NCBI GenBank assembly: GCA_964399295.1
Contig: CAYNQD010000001.1
Location: 335,672 to 399,671, forward strand
DNA length: 64,000 nt
Direction: 5' to 3'
DNA from: an uncultured Candidatus Saccharibacteria bacterium
Lineage (GTDB): Bacteria > Patescibacteriota > Minisyncoccia > Phycocordibacterales > UBA918
The translations under genes were made by a program, and so were the position numbers. Of the stretch, positions 4,557 through 56,822 are shown in pieces. How positions within the stretch are numbered: position 1 is the stretch's first letter; each line of letters begins with the position of its first letter. The notes under the pieces were generated by a model. The model was not told the DNA's origin, ran no database searches, and saw only the letters and a list, made by a program, of their open reading frames with translations.

Positions 4557-4632
4557 GTCCTGGTGGCGAAGTGGTTAACGCTGCGGTTTGCAAAACCGCC
4601 ATACGTGGGTTCAACTCCCACCCAGGACTCCA
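4557..4632 (+). tRNA. tRNA-Cys (GCA), CCA encoded
   Basis: Cloverleaf: acceptor GTCCTGG/CCAGGAC, anticodon loop TTGCAAA, T-arm GTGGG-TTCAACT-CCCAC, then TCCA. Confidence 0.85.
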
Positions 4633-4686
4633 GACTGATGTTGTTTTGCTGAAGGTAAAATTGACATGAGTCGTTGGTCTTTTTCT

Positions 4687-4725
4687 GGTGGTGGTGGCGC
4701 GAGCTAAAGCTCGCGCCACCACCAC
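4687..4725. repeat. GC-rich hairpin (about 17-bp stem, loop TAAA) between tRNA-Cys and tRNA-Leu
   Basis: ggtggtggtggcgcgagc-taaa-gctcgcgccaccaccac. No U-run on either side, so not a canonical intrinsic terminator. Confidence 0.5.
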
Positions 4726-4740
4726 GACACACAAAGACGT

Positions 4741-4829
4741 GCCGGGGTGGTGGAATGGTAGACACGAAGGACTTAAAATCCTTTGCCCATTAAAAAAGCG
4801 TGCGGGTTCGAGTCCCGCTCCCGGCACCA
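4741..4829 (+). tRNA. tRNA-Leu (TAA), long variable arm, CCA encoded
   Basis: Acceptor GCCGGGG/TCCCGGC, anticodon loop CTTAAAA, extended variable arm, T-arm GCGGG-TTCGAGT-CCCGC, discriminator A plus CCA. Confidence 0.85.
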
Positions 4830-4938
4830 AATCAGAACTCAAAAGATTGACCGCCCTCCGCAAATAGTGAGTTGCTGTGAGGTTTTCCTACAGCTATTGT
4901 TTTAATTGCATAATTGTTGTAAACTTTTCGTCACAAAC

Positions 4939-5011
4939 GCGCCTTTAGCTCAGTTGGTAGAGCAGCTCCCTCTTAAGGAGACGGTCCAAGGTTCGAGCCC
5001 TTGAAGGCGCA
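4939..5011 (+). tRNA. tRNA-Lys (CTT), CCA not encoded
   Basis: Acceptor GCGCCTT/AAGGCGC, D-arm GCTCAGTTGGTAGAGC, anticodon loop CTCTTAA, T-arm CAAGG-TTCGAGC-CCTTG. Confidence 0.85.
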
Positions 5012-5116
5012 CTAATAAAAAGACTACTGCTTTGCGGCGGTTTTTATTAACACACCTTCCCCACCCCACGCCCATTCGCCAACTTTAAATTTTGTGCTAT
5101 ACTCTTGCCTACACCC

Positions 5117-5198
5117 GCGCGGGTGGCGAAATTGGTAGACGCGTTAGTCTTAGGAACTAATAGAGCAATCTGTGGAGGTTCAAGTCCTCTCCCGCGCA
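5117..5198 (+). tRNA. tRNA-Leu (TAG), long variable arm, CCA not encoded
   Basis: Acceptor GCGCGGG/CCCGCGC, anticodon stem-loop TTAGT-CTTAGGA-ACTAA, long variable arm, T-arm GGAGG-TTCAAGT-CCTCT. A TGCTATACT extended -10-like box lies about 15 nt upstream. Confidence 0.85.
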
Positions 5199-5349
5199 CA
5201 AAAACCTGTACTGAAACTGTATGGTTTCAAGTCCTTTGCACACTAGTAGAAACTTCACTTCGCATAGTGTAATATGCTTTATGTAACAACAATGTTTGTT
5301 GTTATTGCTCTTTTGATTCCTAAATAAATTTTTAAGGAGGTACACAACA

Positions 5350-36197: not shown

Positions 36198-36242
36198 TAA
36201 ATTTGCATTCTGATTAAATTCAGTATATAAATCAGATTAGTT

Positions 36243-36265
36243 ACAGGACTTTCGTCCTGTTTTTT
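36243..36265 (+). terminator. rho-independent terminator after tsaD
   Basis: acaggac-tttc-gtcctgt followed by ttttt. Confidence 0.75.
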
Positions 36266-36351
36266 AAAGCCAAATCCCCGTGAAGGGCCGGCGTACTTTT
36301 GACCTTGTGTCAATTCCCCCGTACGCCGCCCCTTCACGGGGATTTGGCTTT
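36266..36351. repeat. 31-bp near-perfect inverted repeat (one mismatch) with 24-nt loop
   Basis: aaagccaaatccccgtgaagggccggcgtac ...loop... gtacgccgccccttcacggggatttggcttt. Confidence 0.7.
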
Positions 36352-36779
36352 TCACAAATTCAGTGTAACATTTTTTGACAAATAAAAATCTCTGTTCTGC
36401 ACTACTAAAAATAACTACTAAAAATTGACAGCAGATGCTGGAAGTATAAAATTAAGCGACGTTACATTCTGGAGGGGGAACCATTTGTACACGAACCGAT
36501 ATGTCTTTACGTGAACAAACAACACAACCCTGTTTAAAAAAATATTTATTTCGACTTGCTTTCGCGTGCAAGTTTTTTTGTGTCTGTAGATTCACAAAAG
36601 ACCTTTCTACTTTTTACATTAAGGTCTGAGTTCAAAAAATAAAAACTTCGATCTTAATGTGAACAGTACCTAGTATCTGTTCACGAGTTGGTTCCGTAAT
36701 AATTCATACGAGCAACCATTGTATGAATTAAAACCAAACCAACCAAAATTATTATCTAGATTAATAAATAAATTTATTT

Positions 36780-37538
36780 ATGACACACACAAAATACAAC
36801 AACACCAAGTCAATGCTTATCGTTGGCAGTATTGTTACTTTGAGCATGCTTGCTTTTGTTAGTCCAGCATCAGCTGACCGTTCTTCAAGCAAGTCAACCG
36901 GCTCAAACACTAGCAGCGTTACAGTTAGTACTGAAAACAATGCTTTCGTGTTAAATGAGGTTGTAGTAGTGGCCAGCACTGGCAACAACAACATCGACGG
37001 TGGCAACACTGGACGAGCTGGAAATGGTGGTGACGCTAAAGGCAGTCGCGCCAACGCCGGTGACGGTGGTACTTCTGGATCAAGCAGCAATGACGGAGCC
37101 ATTGGTACTGGCGACGCTACAGCGATTGGTACTGTACAGAATGACATCAACAGCAATCGTACAAATGTAACTATTGACTGTGGTTGTGTTAGCAAAAAAG
37201 GCAAGAATGACAAAAATAGCGACAAGCTTGTTGTCTGGACAGGAAACAACGCCGTCCTTGCTAATGGTCTAGCCGTAGCCGCTGAAACTGGAAACAATGA
37301 CATCGACGGCGGAACAACTGGTAAAGCTGGAAATGGTGGTGACGCTACATCTAATGACAACAAGTCAAAGGACAAGCGTGACAACAAGAAGAACAGCACT
37401 ACTGGTGCTGCCAATGCTGGAAATGGTGGTAACACTGGTTCTACAGACAATTACGGGACTATCGTAACTGGTGATTCCCTTTCTGATGGATTGGTAGTAA
37501 ACGTTGTAAACCGCAACGTTACTCGTGTTGCTCGATAA
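36780..37538 (+). CDS. secreted repeat protein (Gly/Asn/Thr-rich, TGNN-IDGG-TG-AGNGGDA repeats)
   Basis: Signal peptide (...SPASA-D). Internal duplications ASTGNNNIDGGNTGRAGNGGDA and AETGNNDIDGGTTGKAGNGGDA. Shares the TGD..NV.N.N motif with the large downstream protein. Confidence 0.6.
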   Translation: MTHTKYNNTKSMLIVGSIVTLSMLAFVSPASADRSSSKSTGSNTSSVTVSTENNAFVLNEVVVVASTGNNNIDGGNTGRAGNGGDAKGSRANAGDGGTSGSSSNDGAIGTGDATAIGTVQNDINSNRTNVTIDCGCVSKKGKNDKNSDKLVVWTGNNAVLANGLAVAAETGNNDIDGGTTGKAGNGGDATSNDNKSKDKRDNKKNSTTGAANAGNGGNTGSTDNYGTIVTGDSLSDGLVVNVVNRNVTRVAR

Positions 37539-37648
37539 TTGACAACTAGGTAGATAAATACCAAATTTATCTGTAGAAGTGGGTCTTTGACCCTACTTCT
37601 ACCAAAATCTGGTCAAAGCTATTGACAAGATTTTGGTGAGAGGTATAA

Positions 37649-38002
37649 GTGAATGTTAATATGTATAGAATATTTGGAGGTTTGTTTTTGTTGCTGCTGG
37701 TAATGCCGCTTTCCACGGAAGCTAGCGTTGCGGTGAGCAATTCAGTTTCGGTGTCGTCATCTGGTGACGGGGTTAGTACCATGCATGTAAAAACCATTAG
37801 CAATGGCGAAGTCGTTGAAAATACAAGCATATCTACCACCACTCCTTTTCATTACCATTCCAGCTACACGACTGAAGACGGATTAAAGACTTCACTTCAG
37901 ACTTCCGACATTGAAAAACTAGAAACAATCAAAAAATTACTAGCATTATTAAACGAACTTCAGACTTTGATGGCTCTGTATGAAAAAATCTATGCTAAAT
38001 AA
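37649..38002 (+). CDS. hypothetical small secreted protein (signal peptide)
   Basis: 117 aa. Hydrophobic N-terminus, Ser/Thr-rich middle, helical C-terminus. Overlaps the start of the next gene by 23 nt. Coding status uncertain. Confidence 0.35.
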   Translation: MNVNMYRIFGGLFLLLLVMPLSTEASVAVSNSVSVSSSGDGVSTMHVKTISNGEVVENTSISTTTPFHYHSSYTTEDGLKTSLQTSDIEKLETIKKLLALLNELQTLMALYEKIYAK

Positions 38003-40835
38003 AAATATCTTTTCTAATTTGTACTCAAGCTTGGTAGGCTTGGTTATTGTCGCGCTATTGGCGCCGGCTGTCTATCCCCTATCTGTCCTAGCCGAAACCA
38101 GCAACGAAGAAACCGTGCTTTCAGCAGAGATTGTCACTGGTGATGCCACAGCCGGCACGACAATAGAAAATGACATAAACACCAACATCATTGATACAAA
38201 AAATGACGGTGAAGAGTTGCCTGATTCCAGCTCTACGCTACCGACACCAGAAACAGCTACCACCACAATCTCGCAAAACCCAGAAAATGACGCTGCTAGC
38301 AGCACGTCAAAATTGCCGATGACCCCCAACGAGACAAATATCACCGCCACCAACACCGCTACCACCACCAACCTAGCCACCAGCACCGCCGAAACCGGAG
38401 GCAATACTACCGAAGCTGGTAATTTCCTAACTGAGACCGGCGACGCTGTTTCTTATATAGACGTGGTCAATGTCGTAAACACCAATATCATAAACTCATC
38501 CGGTCTGATTGATTTTATTCGCGGAGTGCTTGGCTACGATAATTTTGACATGCGTGATACTTTTTACGACATCTTCAAATCTTTCCAAACCGCGCAAAGT
38601 ACAAACTCATGTTTGGAAAATATCTGTGACTACAATTCTTTAATGGTGGATTTAGTCAACAGAGCCAATATTTATAACGATATTTCGGTTATCGCCAACA
38701 CCGGCGACAACTCCAGTTTTGACGGCAGCGGCATTATCAGGACTGGAGATGCCTACGCCAGCGCCAATATTGTCAACCTCGCCAACACCAATATTATTGA
38801 CTCCAACTATCTGCTATTAAACTTCAGCAATTTCTCCGACATGGCCGGCTCTTTGGTTTTGCCAAATAGCGATTTCTTCGCCTCATTATTTGGCCATACT
38901 GGCAACTCAATCGGAAGCGGAAATTTTAATTTTAGTAATAACGCCGCCGTTAGCAATGACATTGAAGTGCTGGCCGATACTGGAAATAACGCCATTGACG
39001 ACGGCAGCGGGACAATCACCACCGGCAATTCATTAGCCACCTCTCATACCGAAAACATTATCAACCAGAATTTTCTTGGCACCGATTCTTTTAGTTTGCT
39101 TATTAGAGTCCATGGTTCTTGGAGCGGAGAAATTTTTGGCTTACCGGAAGGCATGCTGTGGGAAAACACTATGGACGGTGTTAGGTTGTATTACGCTGGG
39201 GACAGTGGCGGCGCCTCAGCTAGCGGCAAGACTATGGCCAATATTGCAAATGACGCTACTATTGCAAATAATGTCCAAGTCTTCGCCCTAACCGGAAACA
39301 ATCAGATTTCGGGCAGTGACGACGCGAGCATAGAGACCGGCACCGCCTACGCCGACAGCACGGTATTAAATATGGCCAACACCAACATCATCGGCAGCAA
39401 CTGGGTCAATCTTATCTTTAATATTTATGGAAATTGGAGCGGCAATATTGCCTTTGGCCAACCCGACTTATGGCTGGGATTGGAAGCCGAGACAAAAGAC
39501 AACCTGCAACCAAACACTGAAGTGACTTATAAATACACCATCTTCAATCGCGGTGACACCACAGCTCGAAACGTGATTTTGGAAAATAAATATCCGGCAA
39601 AATCCATCAATTTTATCAATTCACCTGAAGATAATAGTCAAAGTGACGGACACAGCCTCTGGTCGATTGGAGATATTGGGACAGGAGAAACAAAAGAGCT
39701 TATTGTCAAAACCAAAATCGACGCCACTTTTGGAAAGGATAAGCGTCTGCCTTTGCCAATAACCGCCACCGTATACGGCGATCAGCCCGACGCCAACGAC
39801 GCTGACAACGAAGATTCTTTATTGCTCTACGTCGGCAAAAATCAGAAAACGACCTACACAAACAACAATGAGGAAAATAACAGAAACAACGCTTTCCCAG
39901 CCAAATTTTTCATCGAAAAAAGTGCCGACAAAACCTTTGCTAAGGGCGGCGACACCATAAACTACACCGTCAAACTAACCAGTAAAGGCGGACAGCTTTT
40001 TGACTCAGTTTTGTTTGATGTGTTGGAGGATGAAGAAGGTAATATTTTAAGCGAACAATCCTGGAATCTTGACACCATCGAAAACGGCGAAGATATCACT
40101 ATCTCCTACTCGATTATTCTTCCGGAAAATACCGCAACTGGCATTTATACCAATACCGCGCAACTGTTTGGCAATCACGGCTCCAGACAACCAAAATATA
40201 GAACCGTATACGAAAGTGCAGTCGCCAAACATCAGCTAGCGGTGGGCAATTTGGCAGCCTTCCCCAATTTGAACGCCAATATCTTGAGCTGTAGTCCTTA
40301 CCTAAAAACCTACCTAAAACAAGACAAAGATAATGACTTGAGTGAAGTCGTAAAATTGCAACAATTTCTCTATCATTACGTGACCGACGAAATCGAAATC
40401 AGCGGTGTTTTTGATGACGCTACCAGAATTGCCGTTGCTGAATTTCAACAGCAATACGCGGCGGATATTCTTACCCCTTGGGGAATGACACAAAGCTCCG
40501 GCTATGTGTACTACACAACACAAAAGAAAATAAACGAAATCATGTGCGATCACAAAGTTGAATTTCCATTAACCCCAGACCAAGAAAAAGAAATGGATTA
40601 TTTCAAACAAAATATACACAAAATCAACGTTGACGACATGTTGTTTTCCGGAGACATCAACGCCAACGACTTGGCTGCAGCCGATATTGAGAATGAATCA
40701 GCGACAATTATTGCTGACGATTATATCTCCTCCCCAACAATCAAGCTCTTGAAAGAGGTCTCCAAACCGCACTATAGTCGGTTTGATAATTGGCTTTTGC
40801 TGTTCAAAAATACTCACACTGCCTTTCGCTACTAG
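37980..40835 (+). CDS. large cell-surface repeat protein with C-terminal peptidoglycan-binding-like domain
   Basis: 951 aa. Signal/anchor. Motif TG(D/N)A.A.....N..NTNII recurs at least five times. CARDB/DUF11-like beta region (KYTIFNRGDTTARNVILENKY...TGETKELIVKTKIDA). PG_binding_1-like segment (LQQFLYHYVTD.EISGVFDDATRIAVAEFQQQY). Confidence 0.65.
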   Translation: MKKSMLNKNIFSNLYSSLVGLVIVALLAPAVYPLSVLAETSNEETVLSAEIVTGDATAGTTIENDINTNIIDTKNDGEELPDSSSTLPTPETATTTISQNPENDAASSTSKLPMTPNETNITATNTATTTNLATSTAETGGNTTEAGNFLTETGDAVSYIDVVNVVNTNIINSSGLIDFIRGVLGYDNFDMRDTFYDIFKSFQTAQSTNSCLENICDYNSLMVDLVNRANIYNDISVIANTGDNSSFDGSGIIRTGDAYASANIVNLANTNIIDSNYLLLNFSNFSDMAGSLVLPNSDFFASLFGHTGNSIGSGNFNFSNNAAVSNDIEVLADTGNNAIDDGSGTITTGNSLATSHTENIINQNFLGTDSFSLLIRVHGSWSGEIFGLPEGMLWENTMDGVRLYYAGDSGGASASGKTMANIANDATIANNVQVFALTGNNQISGSDDASIETGTAYADSTVLNMANTNIIGSNWVNLIFNIYGNWSGNIAFGQPDLWLGLEAETKDNLQPNTEVTYKYTIFNRGDTTARNVILENKYPAKSINFINSPEDNSQSDGHSLWSIGDIGTGETKELIVKTKIDATFGKDKRLPLPITATVYGDQPDANDADNEDSLLLYVGKNQKTTYTNNNEENNRNNAFPAKFFIEKSADKTFAKGGDTINYTVKLTSKGGQLFDSVLFDVLEDEEGNILSEQSWNLDTIENGEDITISYSIILPENTATGIYTNTAQLFGNHGSRQPKYRTVYESAVAKHQLAVGNLAAFPNLNANILSCSPYLKTYLKQDKDNDLSEVVKLQQFLYHYVTDEIEISGVFDDATRIAVAEFQQQYAADILTPWGMTQSSGYVYYTTQKKINEIMCDHKVEFPLTPDQEKEMDYFKQNIHKINVDDMLFSGDINANDLAAADIENESATIIADDYISSPTIKLLKEVSKPHYSRFDNWLLLFKNTHTAFRY

Positions 40836-50988: not shown

Positions 50989-52557
50989 ATGAGAATTTTA
51001 GTTTTAGCACCATATAGCAGGCCTTGGGATGAATCAGATGCGGAAGGGAGCGGTATGAACATTTTTATTCGTGAAAGCTGTGAAGCGCTGGTAGCAGCGG
51101 GACATACTGTAGATGTTTGTATAAGAAAGTCTCGACCAGGAGATCAAGAGGTGTTTAAAATTCGTAAAGGCTTAAATGTTCACAGTCTTAAAGCTGGTTT
51201 GGTTGGAAAATTATCTCGACATGAAGTTTATAATGCCTTGCAAAAATCTGGATTTTCTGATGATTTGGTTGACAGAGCTGATTTGGTAATCGCACATTAT
51301 TGGATATCAGCACCTTGGATAAAAGCAGTTTCTGGAAAGTATCACGGTCGGATTCTGTATTTTTCTCATTCTCATTTTCTAAATCCATATCGTGAACAAG
51401 TTGATTCTTTGCACCAAAAAGCTGAAATTGGCTTGCTTGGTCGAGTGACTTGGTGTGCTTATAGTTCGGAGGAGTTTGAGAGTCTTTCCGACATTTTGCC
51501 TGAAGGAAGGTTGGCTATGACTCATCCTGGGGTGGAGAATGTGGTTGGATTTGGTGATTTAGAACGAACCAACGAGGTTTTGTTTGTGGGTAGGAAAAAT
51601 CATGCCAAAGGTTATGATTTATTTTGTGCAGTCGCTAATAGATTTCCATATCTTTCATTTGTGGCAATTGGTAGAGATGAGGTAGGGGATGATATCAATA
51701 CGGAACATGTTATTTCAGAGGATTTTTTGGAATTATCTAAGTTACAAAGAAGAATATCCGCCGCACGATTGGTTGTCTGCCCATCTCGCTATGAGCATTT
51801 TGGCTTGATTCCACTACTGGCACTTTCAGTCGGTACACCTGTTGTAGCTACAAATCGAGGTGGTTTTAAGGATGTAATAATTTCAGAAAGTACTGGCGTA
51901 TTATGTGAAAGTAATGTTGAGTCAATAGCTAATGCAATTAACTTAGCCCTTGATAAGTTACCTATACCAGCTCAGGACACAAAAGCCAAAGAAATTTTAA
52001 ATAAATACTCTTGGAATAATTGGGTGCGGGAAATACAAGCAGTGGCTACACAGACTGACAATTTGCTTCAGACTAAATTTTTAGAGGTTAGTGTGACACC
52101 TCACAAAACCAACGGTGCTGTTGTTTGGTACGAAAAAGTGAAATTGCCAGGTTCCGTTCATGTGATTCCGGTAAATGAAGATGGCACGTATGAATTTATA
52201 GAGGAAGATAGATACGATGAAGGTGTCTCGGGTAAGCTTCGAGTTCTTTCAGGTATAATTGAGAAAGGAGAATCTCCCGATCAAGCCGCTATCAGAGAAT
52301 TAAAAGAAGAAATTGGCTGGGAGACTGAAAGATTAGTCTTGATTTGGCATTCCATGACAAAAGGTACTGTTGAAGACCAGCGGTATTATTTTCTTGCTGA
52401 AAATTCAAAAAAAGGCGCCTCTATACCAGATACAACTGAAAGGATTGTTGATACGCGCTCTATTGCTAAAGAGGAACTATTAAAATTAGTACAGCAAGGA
52501 GTTTTTGGGGAATCATTTACGGCAGTTGCTCTCTTGAAGTTGTGTGGTATTTTATAA
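50989..52557 (+). CDS. GT4-family glycosyltransferase fused to C-terminal NUDIX hydrolase domain
   Basis: GT4 N-terminal region. EX7E-type motif EHFGLIPLLALSVGTPVVATNRGGFKDVI. Nudix box GIIEKGESPDQAAIRELKEEIGW about 120 aa from the C-terminus. Confidence 0.7.
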   Translation: MRILVLAPYSRPWDESDAEGSGMNIFIRESCEALVAAGHTVDVCIRKSRPGDQEVFKIRKGLNVHSLKAGLVGKLSRHEVYNALQKSGFSDDLVDRADLVIAHYWISAPWIKAVSGKYHGRILYFSHSHFLNPYREQVDSLHQKAEIGLLGRVTWCAYSSEEFESLSDILPEGRLAMTHPGVENVVGFGDLERTNEVLFVGRKNHAKGYDLFCAVANRFPYLSFVAIGRDEVGDDINTEHVISEDFLELSKLQRRISAARLVVCPSRYEHFGLIPLLALSVGTPVVATNRGGFKDVIISESTGVLCESNVESIANAINLALDKLPIPAQDTKAKEILNKYSWNNWVREIQAVATQTDNLLQTKFLEVSVTPHKTNGAVVWYEKVKLPGSVHVIPVNEDGTYEFIEEDRYDEGVSGKLRVLSGIIEKGESPDQAAIRELKEEIGWETERLVLIWHSMTKGTVEDQRYYFLAENSKKGASIPDTTERIVDTRSIAKEELLKLVQQGVFGESFTAVALLKLCGIL

Positions 52558-52596: not shown

Positions 52597-54264
52597 CTAC
52601 TGTGGACCAATAACATCTTTTTTTAGGAAGAATTTGGCGTGCAGGGATTTGGAGATTTCTTCTAGTTCTTTTGATTTTAAAATATGATAAACCAAAATCG
52701 CGCTCAAAACGCCCACAAAGGCCGCCGTGGCTCCTTGCAGCAAAATACCCATAAAAGTTTCCTGATTGATGCCGTCCACGATAAAAATAAGAGTTGCGTA
52801 GGCCGACAGCCCAGCAGATAATCCCGCCAACACGGCTTCCACTATTCTCTTTCCGATTCCTTGCCATTCTAAGTCAAAGATCGAAGAAGCGACGGCAATT
52901 AAGATAATCATTTCTATAATCACTCCCGTCACAAACGCCAAAGCCAAAATAAAGACTTCCGTACCGGAAACACCTTCCAATCTAAAAACGCTCTCCAAAA
53001 AAGAGCGAAAAGCCAAAGAAGAATTAAACCAATTCAAAAATAAAAAAGCGGAGCTGATGGAAGCCGTCGCTCCAATCGTAGCAATAATAAGCGGCAAGCG
53101 AGTATTGCCACCGGCGTAGAAAGTCCTTATCAATAAAAGCATAAAAGACTGCGCGGTAAGAGCAATGATAAACAGGGCCAGCATAGCAGCCACCAAACGG
53201 GTATCATTCCAATCAAAAGCCCCACTACCCAAAACCACTCGGACGATTTGTGCACGCAATACTATGACCAAAGCAATAATCGGGAATGACCAAAAAATAA
53301 TGTGGCGGAGAGCCGTATAGACATGGATATTAAAAATATCGCGCTTCTTCTGCGCGAAGAGGTCTGCCAAAACCGGAAAAGCCGCCACGGAATAACTCAT
53401 GCCAATAATAGCCAACGGCACGGATTGCAAATTGAAAGCAAATTGAAAAATAGAAACCGAACCGACAGTCATCATTGTCGCCATACTGATAAATACCAGC
53501 AGTACCACCTGATGAATAGACAAAGTAATAGCTCTAGGAATGGCCACCATCAAGACAGAGCGCACTAGCTTTAAATCAAAAACTTTAACCAAACCAAAAG
53601 ACAGTTCGCTGCGCAAAATCAAGGGTAATTGTACCAACATGTGTCCGGCAGCACCCGCCACCACTCCCCAGACCAAACCCGACAAACCAAAAGCGGGATA
53701 AAGAAAAATAATTCCTAAAATTATCCCTAAATTATAAATCAAAGGACTAATGGCGTACAAAATAAAACGCTGTGACAATTGCGTTATCACGCCAAACAAA
53801 CTTGAAATACCAAGCAAAAAAGGCTGCAATAATAATATTCTAAGCAAAGTAACTAAAGTTTCATTATCAGCTCCAAAACCGGGAAATAGCATTTTCACTA
53901 AAAACGGAGCGAAAATAAATAGTAACAAGGCTAAACAAATATAGATAACTATAAATATAGTAAACATCTGCCCCAGAATATTTGAACCGGTTTTTACATC
54001 ATCATCTTCTTTGGCCCTAGCCACAAAGGGCAGCAAAACATAAACCGACAAAACCGAAGCGAATAAAACAAACAGCAAGTCAGGGATTTTAAAGGCCGTG
54101 TAATACAAATCCAATTCATTGCTCGCACCAAAAGTATGCGCCAACAAACGGTCTCTGATTAAGGCCAGAAGCTGCGAACCGAAAGCAAATAAAGCAAGAA
54201 TATACGCGGCTTGATGCAAGCCGCGTATTTCGCTATACATAAGTTTGAAGACTCGTTTTACCAT
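52597..54264 (-). CDS. murJ: lipid II flippase MurJ (MviN)
   Basis: 14-TM MOP-superfamily pattern with the MurJ N-terminus (LLALIRDRLLAHTFGASNELD). Confidence 0.8.
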   Translation of the reverse strand: MVKRVFKLMYSEIRGLHQAAYILALFAFGSQLLALIRDRLLAHTFGASNELDLYYTAFKIPDLLFVLFASVLSVYVLLPFVARAKEDDDVKTGSNILGQMFTIFIVIYICLALLLFIFAPFLVKMLFPGFGADNETLVTLLRILLLQPFLLGISSLFGVITQLSQRFILYAISPLIYNLGIILGIIFLYPAFGLSGLVWGVVAGAAGHMLVQLPLILRSELSFGLVKVFDLKLVRSVLMVAIPRAITLSIHQVVLLVFISMATMMTVGSVSIFQFAFNLQSVPLAIIGMSYSVAAFPVLADLFAQKKRDIFNIHVYTALRHIIFWSFPIIALVIVLRAQIVRVVLGSGAFDWNDTRLVAAMLALFIIALTAQSFMLLLIRTFYAGGNTRLPLIIATIGATASISSAFLFLNWFNSSLAFRSFLESVFRLEGVSGTEVFILALAFVTGVIIEMIILIAVASSIFDLEWQGIGKRIVEAVLAGLSAGLSAYATLIFIVDGINQETFMGILLQGATAAFVGVLSAILVYHILKSKELEEISKSLHAKFFLKKDVIGPQ

Positions 54265-54277
54265 AAAATATCCATTA

Positions 54278-56779
54278 TCAGTTTTCTATCATTTCTCCTT
54301 CTGTTTCCGTTACGATCTGATTTTCCGTATTGCTTGTATTACCCTTATTCAAGGGCGTTATTAGGCTGGTTGCCGGCAATTCAAGTGAGGTGGTGGTGTC
54401 ATCTTTGGTTTCTACCTGACCACCGTCCCTGACAGGGACAGACAAGCCCAAATCACTTTTTTCAAATTCCCCAGCCTCAATCTGACTTATCATGGTCTTT
54501 AATTCAGAATTATCGGGGTTGGTGGTGGCAATTATTTTCAATTGGGCCAGAGCTTCCGCCGGTCGCTCGGTATCAATATACGCTAAAGCTAGAAAATAAC
54601 GAGCGTTGGCGTAGTTGTTGTCCAAAGCAATGGCCCGCTCAAAGGCCTTGATGGCTTCGTATAAATTATTGGTGGTAGCCAGCAAAACCCCCAGTTGAAA
54701 ATATCTGGTGGGATTTAGGGGTTCGATATTTATAATTGATTTTGTTATCATTATGGCGTCTTCGGTTTTGTTTTCTCTAATATCTAGCTGTGAAAGCAAG
54801 AACAAAGCTTCAGTGTAATTATTTTTCAACTGAATGGCTTCAGTTAAATGCATGCGCGCGGTTTCAAAATCACCCTGACGAGCTGAAAGTTCGGCTTGCA
54901 AAACCAAGTAACTGGGATTTAAAGGGTCGAGGGAACGAGCTTTTTTAAAAGCGGTTTCTTTTCTTGATTTTAATTCTTCAAATTCGGATTGATTTATCAG
55001 TCCGTAAAAACTTGCCAATAGAGAGTAATTTACGGGATTGGTGGAATCAAGAGAGATTGCCAGCTCAGAAAGATTGATGCCCTCAACCAAAATCAAACCA
55101 AACCTTTCTTCATCATCCGTCGTCGGCTCTGGTATCGCCAAAAGCTGATTCAATTCAATCAACCGCAATCTAGCCCTTTCAGCCACAAAAACATCCTGAC
55201 CAAACATTTGCTGTGACCGCTGCAACATTAAATCAATTTCACCAAAATCAGAAGTCGTGGTAGAAGCTCTAACGGCATTGATGTAATTTACCTGAGCTAG
55301 ATATTGTTTGCTGATATTAAAAGCCGCCGTTCCGGTAGCGATAATCAGCAAAGTAATCGCCGTCAATAAAACCAGTCCTTGGCGGCGATTGCTGGTGACG
55401 TTTATGTTTATTTTCTTTTCCAAAGTCGTCATGCTATAGACAGCCAAAGCCAAGCCCGTGAAAAGAGCGGCCAAAAGCATGATGGTTGACCCTGGCACGT
55501 ACACAATACTAATCAACCACAAATAAACAGAGCCCACAAAAGTAATTACCCCAATCGAATACCAACCACCATCGAGCTTGGCCACAAAGAGAGTTTTGTA
55601 TCCGATATATAAAAACGCCAACAAAAACAACACAAAAATTGAACCGCCGGCAATACCGGTAGTAACAAACAAACTAGGCACCAGGCCACTACCGGCGCTA
55701 AAATTGGTATTCCAGAAGTTTGTTTGGTTTATGATAGGGTTTTTGTGTTGCCGCCAAGCATCCTCAAAACGATTGGCTCCCACCCCGAGCAAAGCGTCTT
55801 CCTTGTATACAGAATTGATTATATCGACAGTCGCCCCGAGTGACGGCCTGACTTCCAGGTAAGACACACCGGTTAATTTTCCTAAATTAGTACCCAAATA
55901 ATCACCAGCCGCGACGAAAGTAAAAGAAATCGCGACCACCAAACCCATCATAGCTAACGTAAATTTGCTTACCGGCATTTGTTCTTCCTCAGAAAGTCGT
56001 AGCCAAGTGTCTTTGGACAATCCATACAACAACATCAACAAGCTAAAAAGTCCCAGTATTATCCAAATAATGGTAAAATTAACCACCATAAGCAAAAATA
56101 AAGACAATACCAAAATCGCACCCAAGGCTATTTTTGCAAACAAATTTGCCGACAATTGCTGCAGTAACAACAAAACCACAATCACCACCAAGCCGGCAAA
56201 CAAAGCCAAATCATTAAAACTTCCAATATAAGAACTGATGTTGGTTGTAAAAAGCCCGAATGATAAAAATTCCGGCCCTAGGAAAATTCGTAAAGTTTGA
56301 GCTACAAGCAAGAAAGAGGTCGTGAGACCGAAAACTATAAATAATCTAGCTACCGCAGACTTAGCTTCACCAAAAGCCAAACCAACGGTCATGACCACTC
56401 CCAGCAAGATAAAAAAGCCCACTGTATGGATTTCAAACATATTGCCATACAAAGCGTCCACCCTATCACCAGACAACAAAGCCGAAGCCAGCATAATAAG
56501 AACGAACAACCAAAACAGCAATAAAGCCGAAGGTAAAGAAAATTTTATTTCCCCGCGCCTTAAAACCGATAGACAAAGAAAAACCGTCACCAAAAACACT
56601 CCGATTATAACGAAAAAGGATTTAGTGAAGCCAAGCGCCACAAAAGACCAAGGCAAAAAGAAAACCGGCAGCAAGCCAAACGTAACTATAAAAACAAATC
56701 TGGCCACACCCTGAAGCCAACTGCTGATATTGTCACGGTTTAGATTTTTTAGTTGGGGCAAAAAAATGTTGTCTCGCAT
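54278..56779 (-). CDS. O-antigen-ligase-like (Wzy_C) polytopic membrane protein with C-terminal TPR repeats
   Basis: At least 12 TM helices with a large loop typical of Wzy/WaaL. C-terminal TPR repeats (AIKAFERAIALDNNYANARYFLALAY). ATG at 56779 with RBS AGGAGA; the listed ORF begins at a TTG 6 nt upstream. Confidence 0.6.
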   Translation of the reverse strand: MRDNIFLPQLKNLNRDNISSWLQGVARFVFIVTFGLLPVFFLPWSFVALGFTKSFFVIIGVFLVTVFLCLSVLRRGEIKFSLPSALLLFWLFVLIMLASALLSGDRVDALYGNMFEIHTVGFFILLGVVMTVGLAFGEAKSAVARLFIVFGLTTSFLLVAQTLRIFLGPEFLSFGLFTTNISSYIGSFNDLALFAGLVVIVVLLLLQQLSANLFAKIALGAILVLSLFLLMVVNFTIIWIILGLFSLLMLLYGLSKDTWLRLSEEEQMPVSKFTLAMMGLVVAISFTFVAAGDYLGTNLGKLTGVSYLEVRPSLGATVDIINSVYKEDALLGVGANRFEDAWRQHKNPIINQTNFWNTNFSAGSGLVPSLFVTTGIAGGSIFVLFLLAFLYIGYKTLFVAKLDGGWYSIGVITFVGSVYLWLISIVYVPGSTIMLLAALFTGLALAVYSMTTLEKKININVTSNRRQGLVLLTAITLLIIATGTAAFNISKQYLAQVNYINAVRASTTTSDFGEIDLMLQRSQQMFGQDVFVAERARLRLIELNQLLAIPEPTTDDEERFGLILVEGINLSELAISLDSTNPVNYSLLASFYGLINQSEFEELKSRKETAFKKARSLDPLNPSYLVLQAELSARQGDFETARMHLTEAIQLKNNYTEALFLLSQLDIRENKTEDAIMITKSIINIEPLNPTRYFQLGVLLATTNNLYEAIKAFERAIALDNNYANARYFLALAYIDTERPAEALAQLKIIATTNPDNSELKTMISQIEAGEFEKSDLGLSVPVRDGGQVETKDDTTTSLELPATSLITPLNKGNTSNTENQIVTETEGEMIEN

Positions 56780-56822
56780 AACCAATATCTCCTAATTCTA
56801 GCACACACACAAACACCCCTAA

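Follow-up and report, generated by a model that had tools for sequence, protein, structure and literature searches.

A 64-kb stretch of DNA from an uncultured Candidatus Saccharibacteria bacterium (contig CAYNQD010000001.1, positions 335,672 to 399,671; hereafter the window, meaning the whole 64,000 nucleotides [nt]) carries three consecutive plus-strand genes, for which we use the working names A, B, and C. Profile comparisons strongly support A, B, and C as paralogues that share one sequence module, and C is a secreted, probably wall-tethered protein that, judging by its sequence and predicted structure, presents a conserved head of such modules on a stalk of Ig-like domains. We put at about one half (0.5) the chance that this cassette specifies a surface fibre or coat in which A and B assemble on wall-anchored C. 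An initial annotation of the locus had proposed a pair of surface proteins that share a motif and act as an adhesin or in an S-layer-like manner. That interpretation is partly supported. A cell-surface, wall-associated location appears well founded, since A and C begin with Sec-type signal-peptide-like N termini (read from the sequence) and C carries DUF11 (CLIPPER) Ig-like domains and a PG_binding_1 tail. The notion of a pair has to be given up, as the locus is a three-gene cassette whose middle gene, B, had been overlooked between A and C.

A module shared by A, B, and C

The open reading frames (ORFs) originally named, A and C, are present (Table 1), and every motif peptide quoted from them was found in the two proteins. 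Written as TG[DNT][AS]-x7-N-xx-N-x-N, the motif occurs five times in C (residues 53, 153, 255, 348, and 453, about 100 residues apart) and twice in A (residues 110 and 230), and these counts were never reached in 20,000 shuffles that kept the residue composition (shuffle mean, 0.0004 to 0.0007; maximum, 1). A looser form of the motif was not found elsewhere in the six reading frames of the window. The duplicated TGNN-IDGG-TG-AGNGGDA units reported for A were also located, at residues 67 to 86 and 170 to 189. What had been described as a ~25-residue repeat is a real motif, but it is only the central hairpin of a module of ~75 to 100 residues.

The outline of this module comes from an AlphaFold2 (AF2) model of C, built with 67 homologues as input, whose predicted local distance difference test score (pLDDT) averages 80.7 and exceeds 90 over most of the repeat region. 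The module is all-beta in this model, and the motif forms its core hairpin. It begins with a ~20-residue strand (N-x-N-x-A-x-V-x-N-x-V-x-V-x-A), which is followed in order by a TG-x-N turn, a ~10-residue strand, a G-x-G turn, and the hairpin 'I-x-TGDA-x-A...V-x-N-xx-N-T-N-I'; in the long form, an extra strand ('..L.INIFG') and then G-x-W-x-G or 'G.I.LP' complete it. A profile of 42 module copies (alignment A3) scored C at 3.4e-78, with five stretches, and A at 6.4e-9. When families were compared as profiles with hhalign, the A family matched the C module profile with a probability of 96.8% (E = 2.8e-10), the B family matched the module with 93.8% (E = 1.7e-7), and the B and A families matched each other with 96.0%.

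The initial annotation could assign the shared motif to no known domain, and Pfam, NCBIfam, and PDB sequence searches bear this out. Profile A3 had no relative in Pfam, profiles A3, A4, and A2 had none among PDB sequences, and Pfam and NCBIfam found nothing in A, in B, or in residues 1 to 500 of C. Our literature search found no description of the module or of the three-gene cassette. The module is a family without a name and deserves a family definition of its own.

Table 1. Coordinates of the cassette and associated features in the window (aa, amino acids).
Feature	Position	Strand	Details and basis
Promoter-like site, TTGACA-16-TAAAAT	36425..36452	+	11/12; consensus scan only; in intergenic region upstream of A
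Gene A	36780..37538	+	252 aa; signal peptide and two short modules; ORF
A signal peptide, aa 1-32 (...SPASA/D)	36780..36875	+	Read from sequence; conserved in alignment A2
A module 1, aa 46-131	36915..37172	+	Alignment A2; hhalign; AF2 strands (low confidence)
C-x-C (Cys134, Cys136) between A modules	37179..37187	+	Nearly invariant columns, 42 sequences
A module 2, aa 149-252	37224..37535	+	Terminal conserved VVNVVNRNVTRVAR; alignment A2; motif at residue 230
A-B intercistronic RNA, 110 nt, three hairpins	37539..37648	+	Minimum free energy -39.2 kcal/mol, z -5.5
Gene B	37649..38002	+	117 aa from GTG (113 aa from ATG 37661); ORF, family alignment
Gene C	37980..40835	+	951 aa; ORF, AF2; 85 homologues
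C signal peptide, aa 1-38 (...LSVLA/E)	37980..38093	+	Read from sequence; AF2 helix 8-30
C orphan half-module, aa 43-74, TGDA hairpin only	38106..38201	+	Module-profile positions 25-58; pLDDT ~86
C module 1, aa 118-186	38331..38537	+	Profile match 119-180; AF2 strands 118-138, 143-152, 156-166, 169-171, 174-182
C module 2, aa 220-296	38637..38867	+	Profile match 222-296; AF2 strands, pLDDT >90
C module 3, aa 314-410, with hairpin insertion	38919..39209	+	Profile match 315-386; AF2; terminal G379-x-W381-x-G383 in invariant alignment columns
C module 4, aa 417-505	39228..39494	+	Terminal GNWSGNIAFGQPDLW; profile match 418-492; FGQPDLW conserved
CLIPPER/DUF11 Ig-like domain 1, aa 506-618	39495..39833	+	PF01345 best stretch 506-613; TIGR01451; AF2 beta-sandwich
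CLIPPER/DUF11-like Ig domain 2, aa 641-755	39900..40244	+	Second DUF11 stretch; NPCBM_assoc 657-729; AF2 strands
PG_binding_1-like helical domain, aa ~786-856	40335..40547	+	PF01471 788-826; AF2 helices
C-terminal low-confidence tail of C, aa 886-951	40635..40832	+	pLDDT <50; helices 921-927 and 933-949; terminal helix amphipathic

Both modules of A are short, in that they lack the last strand, and each is split by a Gly-rich insert. Module 1 runs from a long strand through a TGNN turn and the Gly-rich insert to the TGDA hairpin, with strands at residues 47 to 66, 70 to 73, 102 to 105, 113 to 120, and 127 to 131 in a low-confidence AF2 model. The protein as a whole is predicted to be all-beta, and its signal peptide shows a basic N terminus, a hydrophobic core, and an AxA site.

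Gene B encodes a signal peptide, one divergent module, and a C-terminal amphipathic helix. A Shine-Dalgarno-like GAGAGG lies ~6 nt upstream of its GTG start, and gene callers place the start later on identical contigs, giving proteins of 104 to 113 aa. B aligns to nearly the whole module; the characteristic stretch of its family is 'V-x-N-x-VSVSA-x-TGGN...G...A-x-V-x-VKT-x-x-NGEVVED', after which comes an amphipathic or hydrophobic tail. In C, an orphan half-module precedes the four modules, and among related loci B was present in 35 of the 44 with such a half-module and in 11 of the 23 without (Fisher p = 0.012, phylogeny ignored). This association is modest, and the idea that B might complete the orphan half-module is speculation.

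Anchoring of C and conservation of the cassette

Downstream of its modules, C had been reported to carry a DUF11-like domain and a PG_binding_1-like helical segment at the C terminus, and we recovered both. DUF11 (PF01345) matched two stretches of C well above its cutoff (51.6 bits versus 24.6; E = 1.4e-13), and TIGR01451 of NCBIfam passed its cutoff narrowly (26.2 versus 24). AF2 strands over residues 497 to 618 and 641 to 755, with pLDDT mostly above 90, form Ig-like beta-sandwiches, in agreement with the CnaA-like fold of 7 to 9 strands expected of CLIPPER. Among the Foldseek matches of C were PDB structures with Ig-like domains in tandem and, from BFVD, a 'DUF11 domain-containing protein'; phmmer found no match to residues 497 to 951 among PDB sequences. 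The PG_binding_1 (PF01471) match at residues 788 to 826 also exceeded its cutoff (27.8 bits versus 23; E = 2.8e-6) and spans only profile positions 3 to 41 of 57; helices are predicted at 787 to 800, 813 to 825/827 to 830, and 845 to 855, with pLDDT of ~80 to 96 over residues 781 to 860, in line with the small helical bundle of this family. By sequence and predicted fold, C qualifies as a CLIPPER and PG_binding_1 protein. CLIPPER is the recent name of DUF11, a CnaA-like stalk domain of fibrillar surface proteins, whose intramolecular isopeptide bond, between Lys and Asn with Asp or Glu as the catalytic residue, is not universal in the family (PMC12617251).

The sequence downstream of the last module was surveyed in 68 C-like proteins. 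CLIPPER/DUF11 followed the modules in 67 of them and PG_binding_1 in 30, while ~20 others had, in place of PG_binding_1, a strongly hydrophobic helix within ~25 to 40 residues of the C terminus. Because two alternative anchors occur at the same end, the C terminus of C should be proximal to the cell and the module head distal. The last 120 residues of C itself contain no hydrophobic segment or transmembrane helix (best 19-residue hydropathy window, 0.43). These sequence features strongly support attachment of C through its C terminus, by a predicted PG_binding_1 domain here and by a putative transmembrane helix in other lineages. The presence of MurJ among the genes of the window suggests that this organism has a peptidoglycan wall. 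Anchoring by sortase was considered and rejected: no LPXTG-type signal was found in A, B, or C, and the window holds no ORF resembling a sortase (TLxTC-bearing), which the initial annotation had suggested looking for, or a type IV pilin.

Beyond the window, the module profile matches thousands of protein clusters. A search of 1.84 billion cluster representatives gave 3356 matches with E <= 1e-3, of which 1461 had E <= 1e-30. Of the 150 best among the 3356, the majority have five module stretches in a protein of ~700 to 1180 aa, and a few are shorter. With a Saccharibacteria-type member as the query, at least 1426 further clusters of ~600-aa proteins were found, which make up a branch of that type. 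Named homologues of A and C are all annotated as hypothetical and come nearly all from Patescibacteria (Parcubacteria/Paceibacterota, Nomura-, Vogel-, Beckwith-, Roizman-, and Daviesbacteria, and Saccharibacteria); for A, with 46 homologues, all those carrying a taxon name do. The cassette family is present in every Patescibacteria class that was sampled. In the C family, alignment columns that are invariant or nearly so (Gly, Asn, Thr, Ala, and Trp) are confined to the modules and absent from the stalk and tail, a pattern that suits a conserved interface for assembly no less well than it suits the tip of a host-specific adhesin.

Gene linkage was surveyed with one genome per species, which yielded 75 loci, almost all from metagenome-assembled genomes (MAGs) of Patescibacteria; 67 had enough upstream sequence to be counted. 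In 66 of the 67, as in the window, the C-like gene is preceded on its own strand by an A-like gene, and in the sole exception (L008) an A-like protein is nevertheless visible by eye. A B-like gene adjoins C in 46 of the 67. The 3' end of B overlaps the start of C by 23 nt in the window and by ~22 to 25 nt, measured from the longest-ORF start of C, in most genomes that have B. Some genomes have expanded A, either to two or three paralogues or to proteins with up to six modules. Flanking genes for TsaD, ValRS, PrsW, and HSP20 are common only to close relatives; since the flanks vary while A-(B)-C stays, the conserved unit is the cassette and not its neighborhood. The persistence of the A-C linkage despite these unconserved flanks argues for a joint function. 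No relative was found on viral contigs, and a phage or mobile origin was rejected on that ground.

Several of the surveyed loci are of interest in themselves. Some cassette contigs are labeled 'uncultured Gammaproteobacteria' or 'Bdellovibrionales' (L063, L069, L072, L076, L078, and L079) and one short contig 'Anaerolineales' (P0005). These labels are probably labeling or binning artefacts of MAG pipelines; as they are unconfirmed, strict restriction of the cassette to Patescibacteria is unproven. In a Beckwithbacteria genome of the Microgenomates (L006; LCOF01000001, 2511-9231), the cassette sits inside a larger surface locus, with an S8 subtilisin-like protease bearing a Pro/Ser-rich tail upstream. 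Downstream are two proteins with Pro/Ser linkers that end in 'MADTG', a hydrophobic helix, and a KK tail, followed by a sortase, the only one seen near a cassette; the two look like possible sortase substrates. A 74-aa ORF in another locus (L007, 6622-6846) duplicates the C-terminal half of the A-like protein there and looks like a fragmentary extra copy or a pseudogene. In L076 (5309-9920), the A-like protein has six short modules in 555 aa and the C-like protein has seven, followed by only ~130 residues, so the number of modules can expand in both partners.

Proposed assembly on C and its alternatives

How might the three proteins work together? In the arrangement that we favor, C is a surface protein, probably wall-anchored, with its two CLIPPER Ig domains as the stalk and its four and a half modules as a confidently predicted beta-rich head at the distal end. 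A would be made in excess as the major subunit, and B, which is probably translationally coupled to C because it overlaps the C start, would be made in amounts similar to C and may serve as a cap or adaptor. Both small proteins would dock on, or extend, the module stack of C through module-to-module beta-sheet contacts, and the CxC of A could provide disulfide cross-links. We infer assembly of A and B with the C head because the module is shared and because A and B almost never occur apart from C. The resulting fibre or coat would be independent of sortase and type IV pili and would probably belong to the envelope or contact architecture of epibiotic cells, with host attachment a possible role. 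The candidate phyla radiation is enriched in MdbA-like disulfide oxidoreductases that act outside the cytoplasm (PMC6744442). A bolder version, which we hold to be doubtful, is that the cassette represents a new, phylum-wide class of surface fibre in single-membrane bacteria, in which C, anchored in peptidoglycan or membrane, would be the base and nucleator, A would be a major subunit that polymerizes by beta-strand augmentation and is locked by CxC disulfides, and B would be the cap or adaptor; neither sortase nor type IV pilus machinery would be required.

The RNA between A and B bears on how much of each protein is made. In the 100 nt after the stop codon of A-like genes, z-scores against shuffles that kept mononucleotide composition fell below -2 in 68 of 70 loci (median z, -4.5); for in-gene control segments, 10 of 70 did so (median z, -0.46). 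Structure after A-like genes is conserved as a property, and the sequences themselves differ between loci (L004-L082). This structured RNA could be a terminator, an attenuator, or an mRNA-stabilizing element that sets the A:B:C ratio. The structured A-B spacer and the B-C overlap together fit an abundant A, as transcript or protein, with B and C in roughly equal amounts, and are no more than suggestive of it. Gene arrangements of this kind resemble operons for a major subunit together with minor or anchor proteins. Kuroda et al. described highly expressed Paceibacteria proteins with signal peptides and peptidoglycan-binding domains (PMC10936435), which may or may not belong to the A/B/C family.

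Several points weigh against the assembly of A and B on C. The shuffles behind the 70-locus z-scores preserved nothing beyond mononucleotide composition. Stem-loops and terminator-like hairpins are common after genes and are no proof of higher expression of A. No expression or proteomic data could be linked to the A/B/C family, about one-third of the loci have no detectable B, and the AF2 model of the A monomer is poor (pLDDT, 50.8).

The next best explanation, a possible one, is that C is a stand-alone fibrillar adhesin whose head serves as a ligand-binding tip for a host glycan or surface, with A and B as independent secreted paralogues, perhaps soluble lectin-like proteins or decoys. Its order of signal peptide, N-terminal non-stalk domain, CLIPPER stalk, and C-terminal anchor matches that of fibrillar adhesins (PMC12617251), and cultivated Patescibacteria are epibionts that require adhesins (PMC10633639). 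Against this, no part of C is better conserved across deeply diverged classes than the N-terminal modules, and their number is nearly fixed at five. The tips of adhesins usually diverge with the host. The linkage of A and C (66 of 67 loci, amid unconserved flanks) is also difficult to reconcile with independent action. With a head that is the most conserved part and a linkage that is near-obligate, we consider a stand-alone adhesin less likely than co-assembly.

We think it unlikely that the cassette builds a housekeeping protective coat, S-layer-like in function, that would maintain envelope integrity and be unrelated to host contact. Such a role would suit a large family found throughout the sampled Patescibacteria classes, a housekeeping neighborhood (TsaD, ValRS, PrsW, MurJ, and GyrA), and a protein A that is small, predicted to be all-beta, and probably abundant. 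The S-layer part of the initial annotation found no footing, however, as neither SLH, CWB2, nor any other recognized S-layer anchoring or lattice domain was matched in Pfam or NCBIfam at E <= 1, and we know of no S-layer lattice protein that resembles a stalked protein with five modules. The mechanism would in any case overlap with that of co-assembly on C, the role alone being different.

Far less probable still is a module region that acts as an enzyme or membrane attacker, degrading glycans or forming pores, and that the stalk would present for the exploitation of a host. The AF2 model of C does contain ~20-residue beta-strands rich in Ser, Thr, and Asn, and strands of such length are reminiscent of beta-pore-forming toxins. 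Patescibacteria are reported to draw resources from their hosts (PMC13622651). The invariant Gly, Asn, Thr, Ala, and Trp residues are, however, typical of turns and packing, and the modules lack any conserved catalytic set of acidic, His, Ser, or Cys residues. Searches matched no enzyme or toxin family, and the top 50 PDB matches include no toxin-like structure. Finally, the composition of A and C, with its many N, T, S, and G residues, might suggest that the repeat is an artefact of low-complexity sequence rich in Asn, Thr, and Gly, but this is refuted by the 20,000 shuffles, by the prediction of the module with pLDDT above 90, and by position-by-position conservation in thousands of proteins.

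Co-assembly on C can also be set beside known surface systems. Like the CLIPPER fibrillar proteins described previously (PMC12617251), C combines a signal peptide and an N-terminal region outside the stalk with tandem CLIPPER domains and a C-terminal anchor. It differs from them in that its head module has no Pfam or NCBIfam entry, only two CLIPPER domains are present, and C is always accompanied by at least one small secreted paralogue of its head. A CLIPPER-stalked, wall-anchored surface protein is thus of a known kind; the head module found across the phylum and the obligate small paralogues are new.

The chaplins of Streptomyces comprise long wall-anchored and short secreted proteins that have a common domain, the short ones being thought to assemble on the long. 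The likeness is one of logic only, a long, multicopy, anchored C with short secreted partners of one or two copies. There is no DUF320 match here, the anchor is PG_binding_1 or a transmembrane helix and not sortase-dependent, and a module of ~75 to 100 aa stands against a hydrophobic chaplin domain of ~40 aa. Curli (CsgA/CsgB) offer another parallel, a small secreted Gly/Asn-rich repeat protein encoded beside a cell-attached paralogue, and Asn-rich strand-turn-strand repeats suggest a stacked beta structure. Homology to curli was rejected, as hhalign against Escherichia coli CsgA gave 0.7% with the A profile and 0.1% with the module profile. Furthermore, the strands here are of ~20 residues as opposed to short beta-solenoid rungs, and no csgEFG-type secretion genes were seen, nor are they expected, since this is a single-membrane bacterium. 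The WxL clusters of Enterococcus and Lactobacillus encode small and large secreted proteins that share a domain, along with an Ig-like anchored partner. These too are multigene cassettes of single-membrane bacteria with non-covalent wall attachment, and the Foldseek matches of C include 9i25 and 9i1y, which we take to be WxL-cluster structures, with similarity confined to the Ig-like domains. They differ in that neither WxL nor DUF916/DUF3324 was matched in Pfam here, and in that the domain shared in our cassette is N-terminal and repeated.

Other features of the window and wider significance

Upstream of A lies an unusually long intergenic region of 582 nt (36198-36779). It contains a strong promoter-like site (Table 1) and, downstream of that site, a terminator-like stem with a T-run at 36553-36574; together these could define a short leader or small transcript. 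The segment is not unusually structured (z, -0.02), and scanning the intergenic regions against Rfam yielded nothing above threshold, only noise. Near the far end of this region, just downstream of tsaD and its terminator-like stem-loop (36243-36260), lies a near-perfect hairpin with a stem of ~30 base pairs (36266-36351), whose arm sequence is unique within the window; the 125-nt segment around it (36236-36360) folds at -70.6 kcal/mol (z, -12.7). This hairpin might serve as a bidirectional terminator or as a binding site for a protein, or it might be left over from a small mobile element.

Elsewhere, a 522-aa protein (50989-52557) fuses a GT4-type glycosyltransferase (Glycos_transf_1/Glyco_transf_4) to a C-terminal NUDIX domain. 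It is adjacent to MurJ (minus strand, 52597-54264) and to a protein of 835 aa (54278-56785) that carries TPR repeats close to its C terminus. Four tRNA genes (Cys-GCA, Leu-TAA, Lys-CTT, and Leu-TAG) are clustered at 4557-5199, and four more are scattered over the window.

Patescibacteria make up a large share of bacterial diversity, and their cultivated members live attached to other cells. The surface structures tied to that lifestyle so far are type IV pili and a few lineage-specific adhesins (PMC10633639, PMC11623550), and, according to Meheust et al., the protein families enriched in the candidate phyla radiation mostly lack annotation and are often extracellular (PMC6744442). A cassette that occurs in Paceibacteria/Parcubacteria, Microgenomates, and Saccharibacteria, with thousands of unannotated members, is a concrete candidate for an envelope or contact structure that these groups share. 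The long-strand beta architecture of the module, which is confidently predicted, may represent a fold that merits structure determination. Genetic manipulation of Saccharibacteria is now possible, which makes the cassette hypothesis directly approachable. If the cassette did prove to be a new class of fibre, it could be part of the contact apparatus of ultrasmall candidate-phyla-radiation cells on their hosts.

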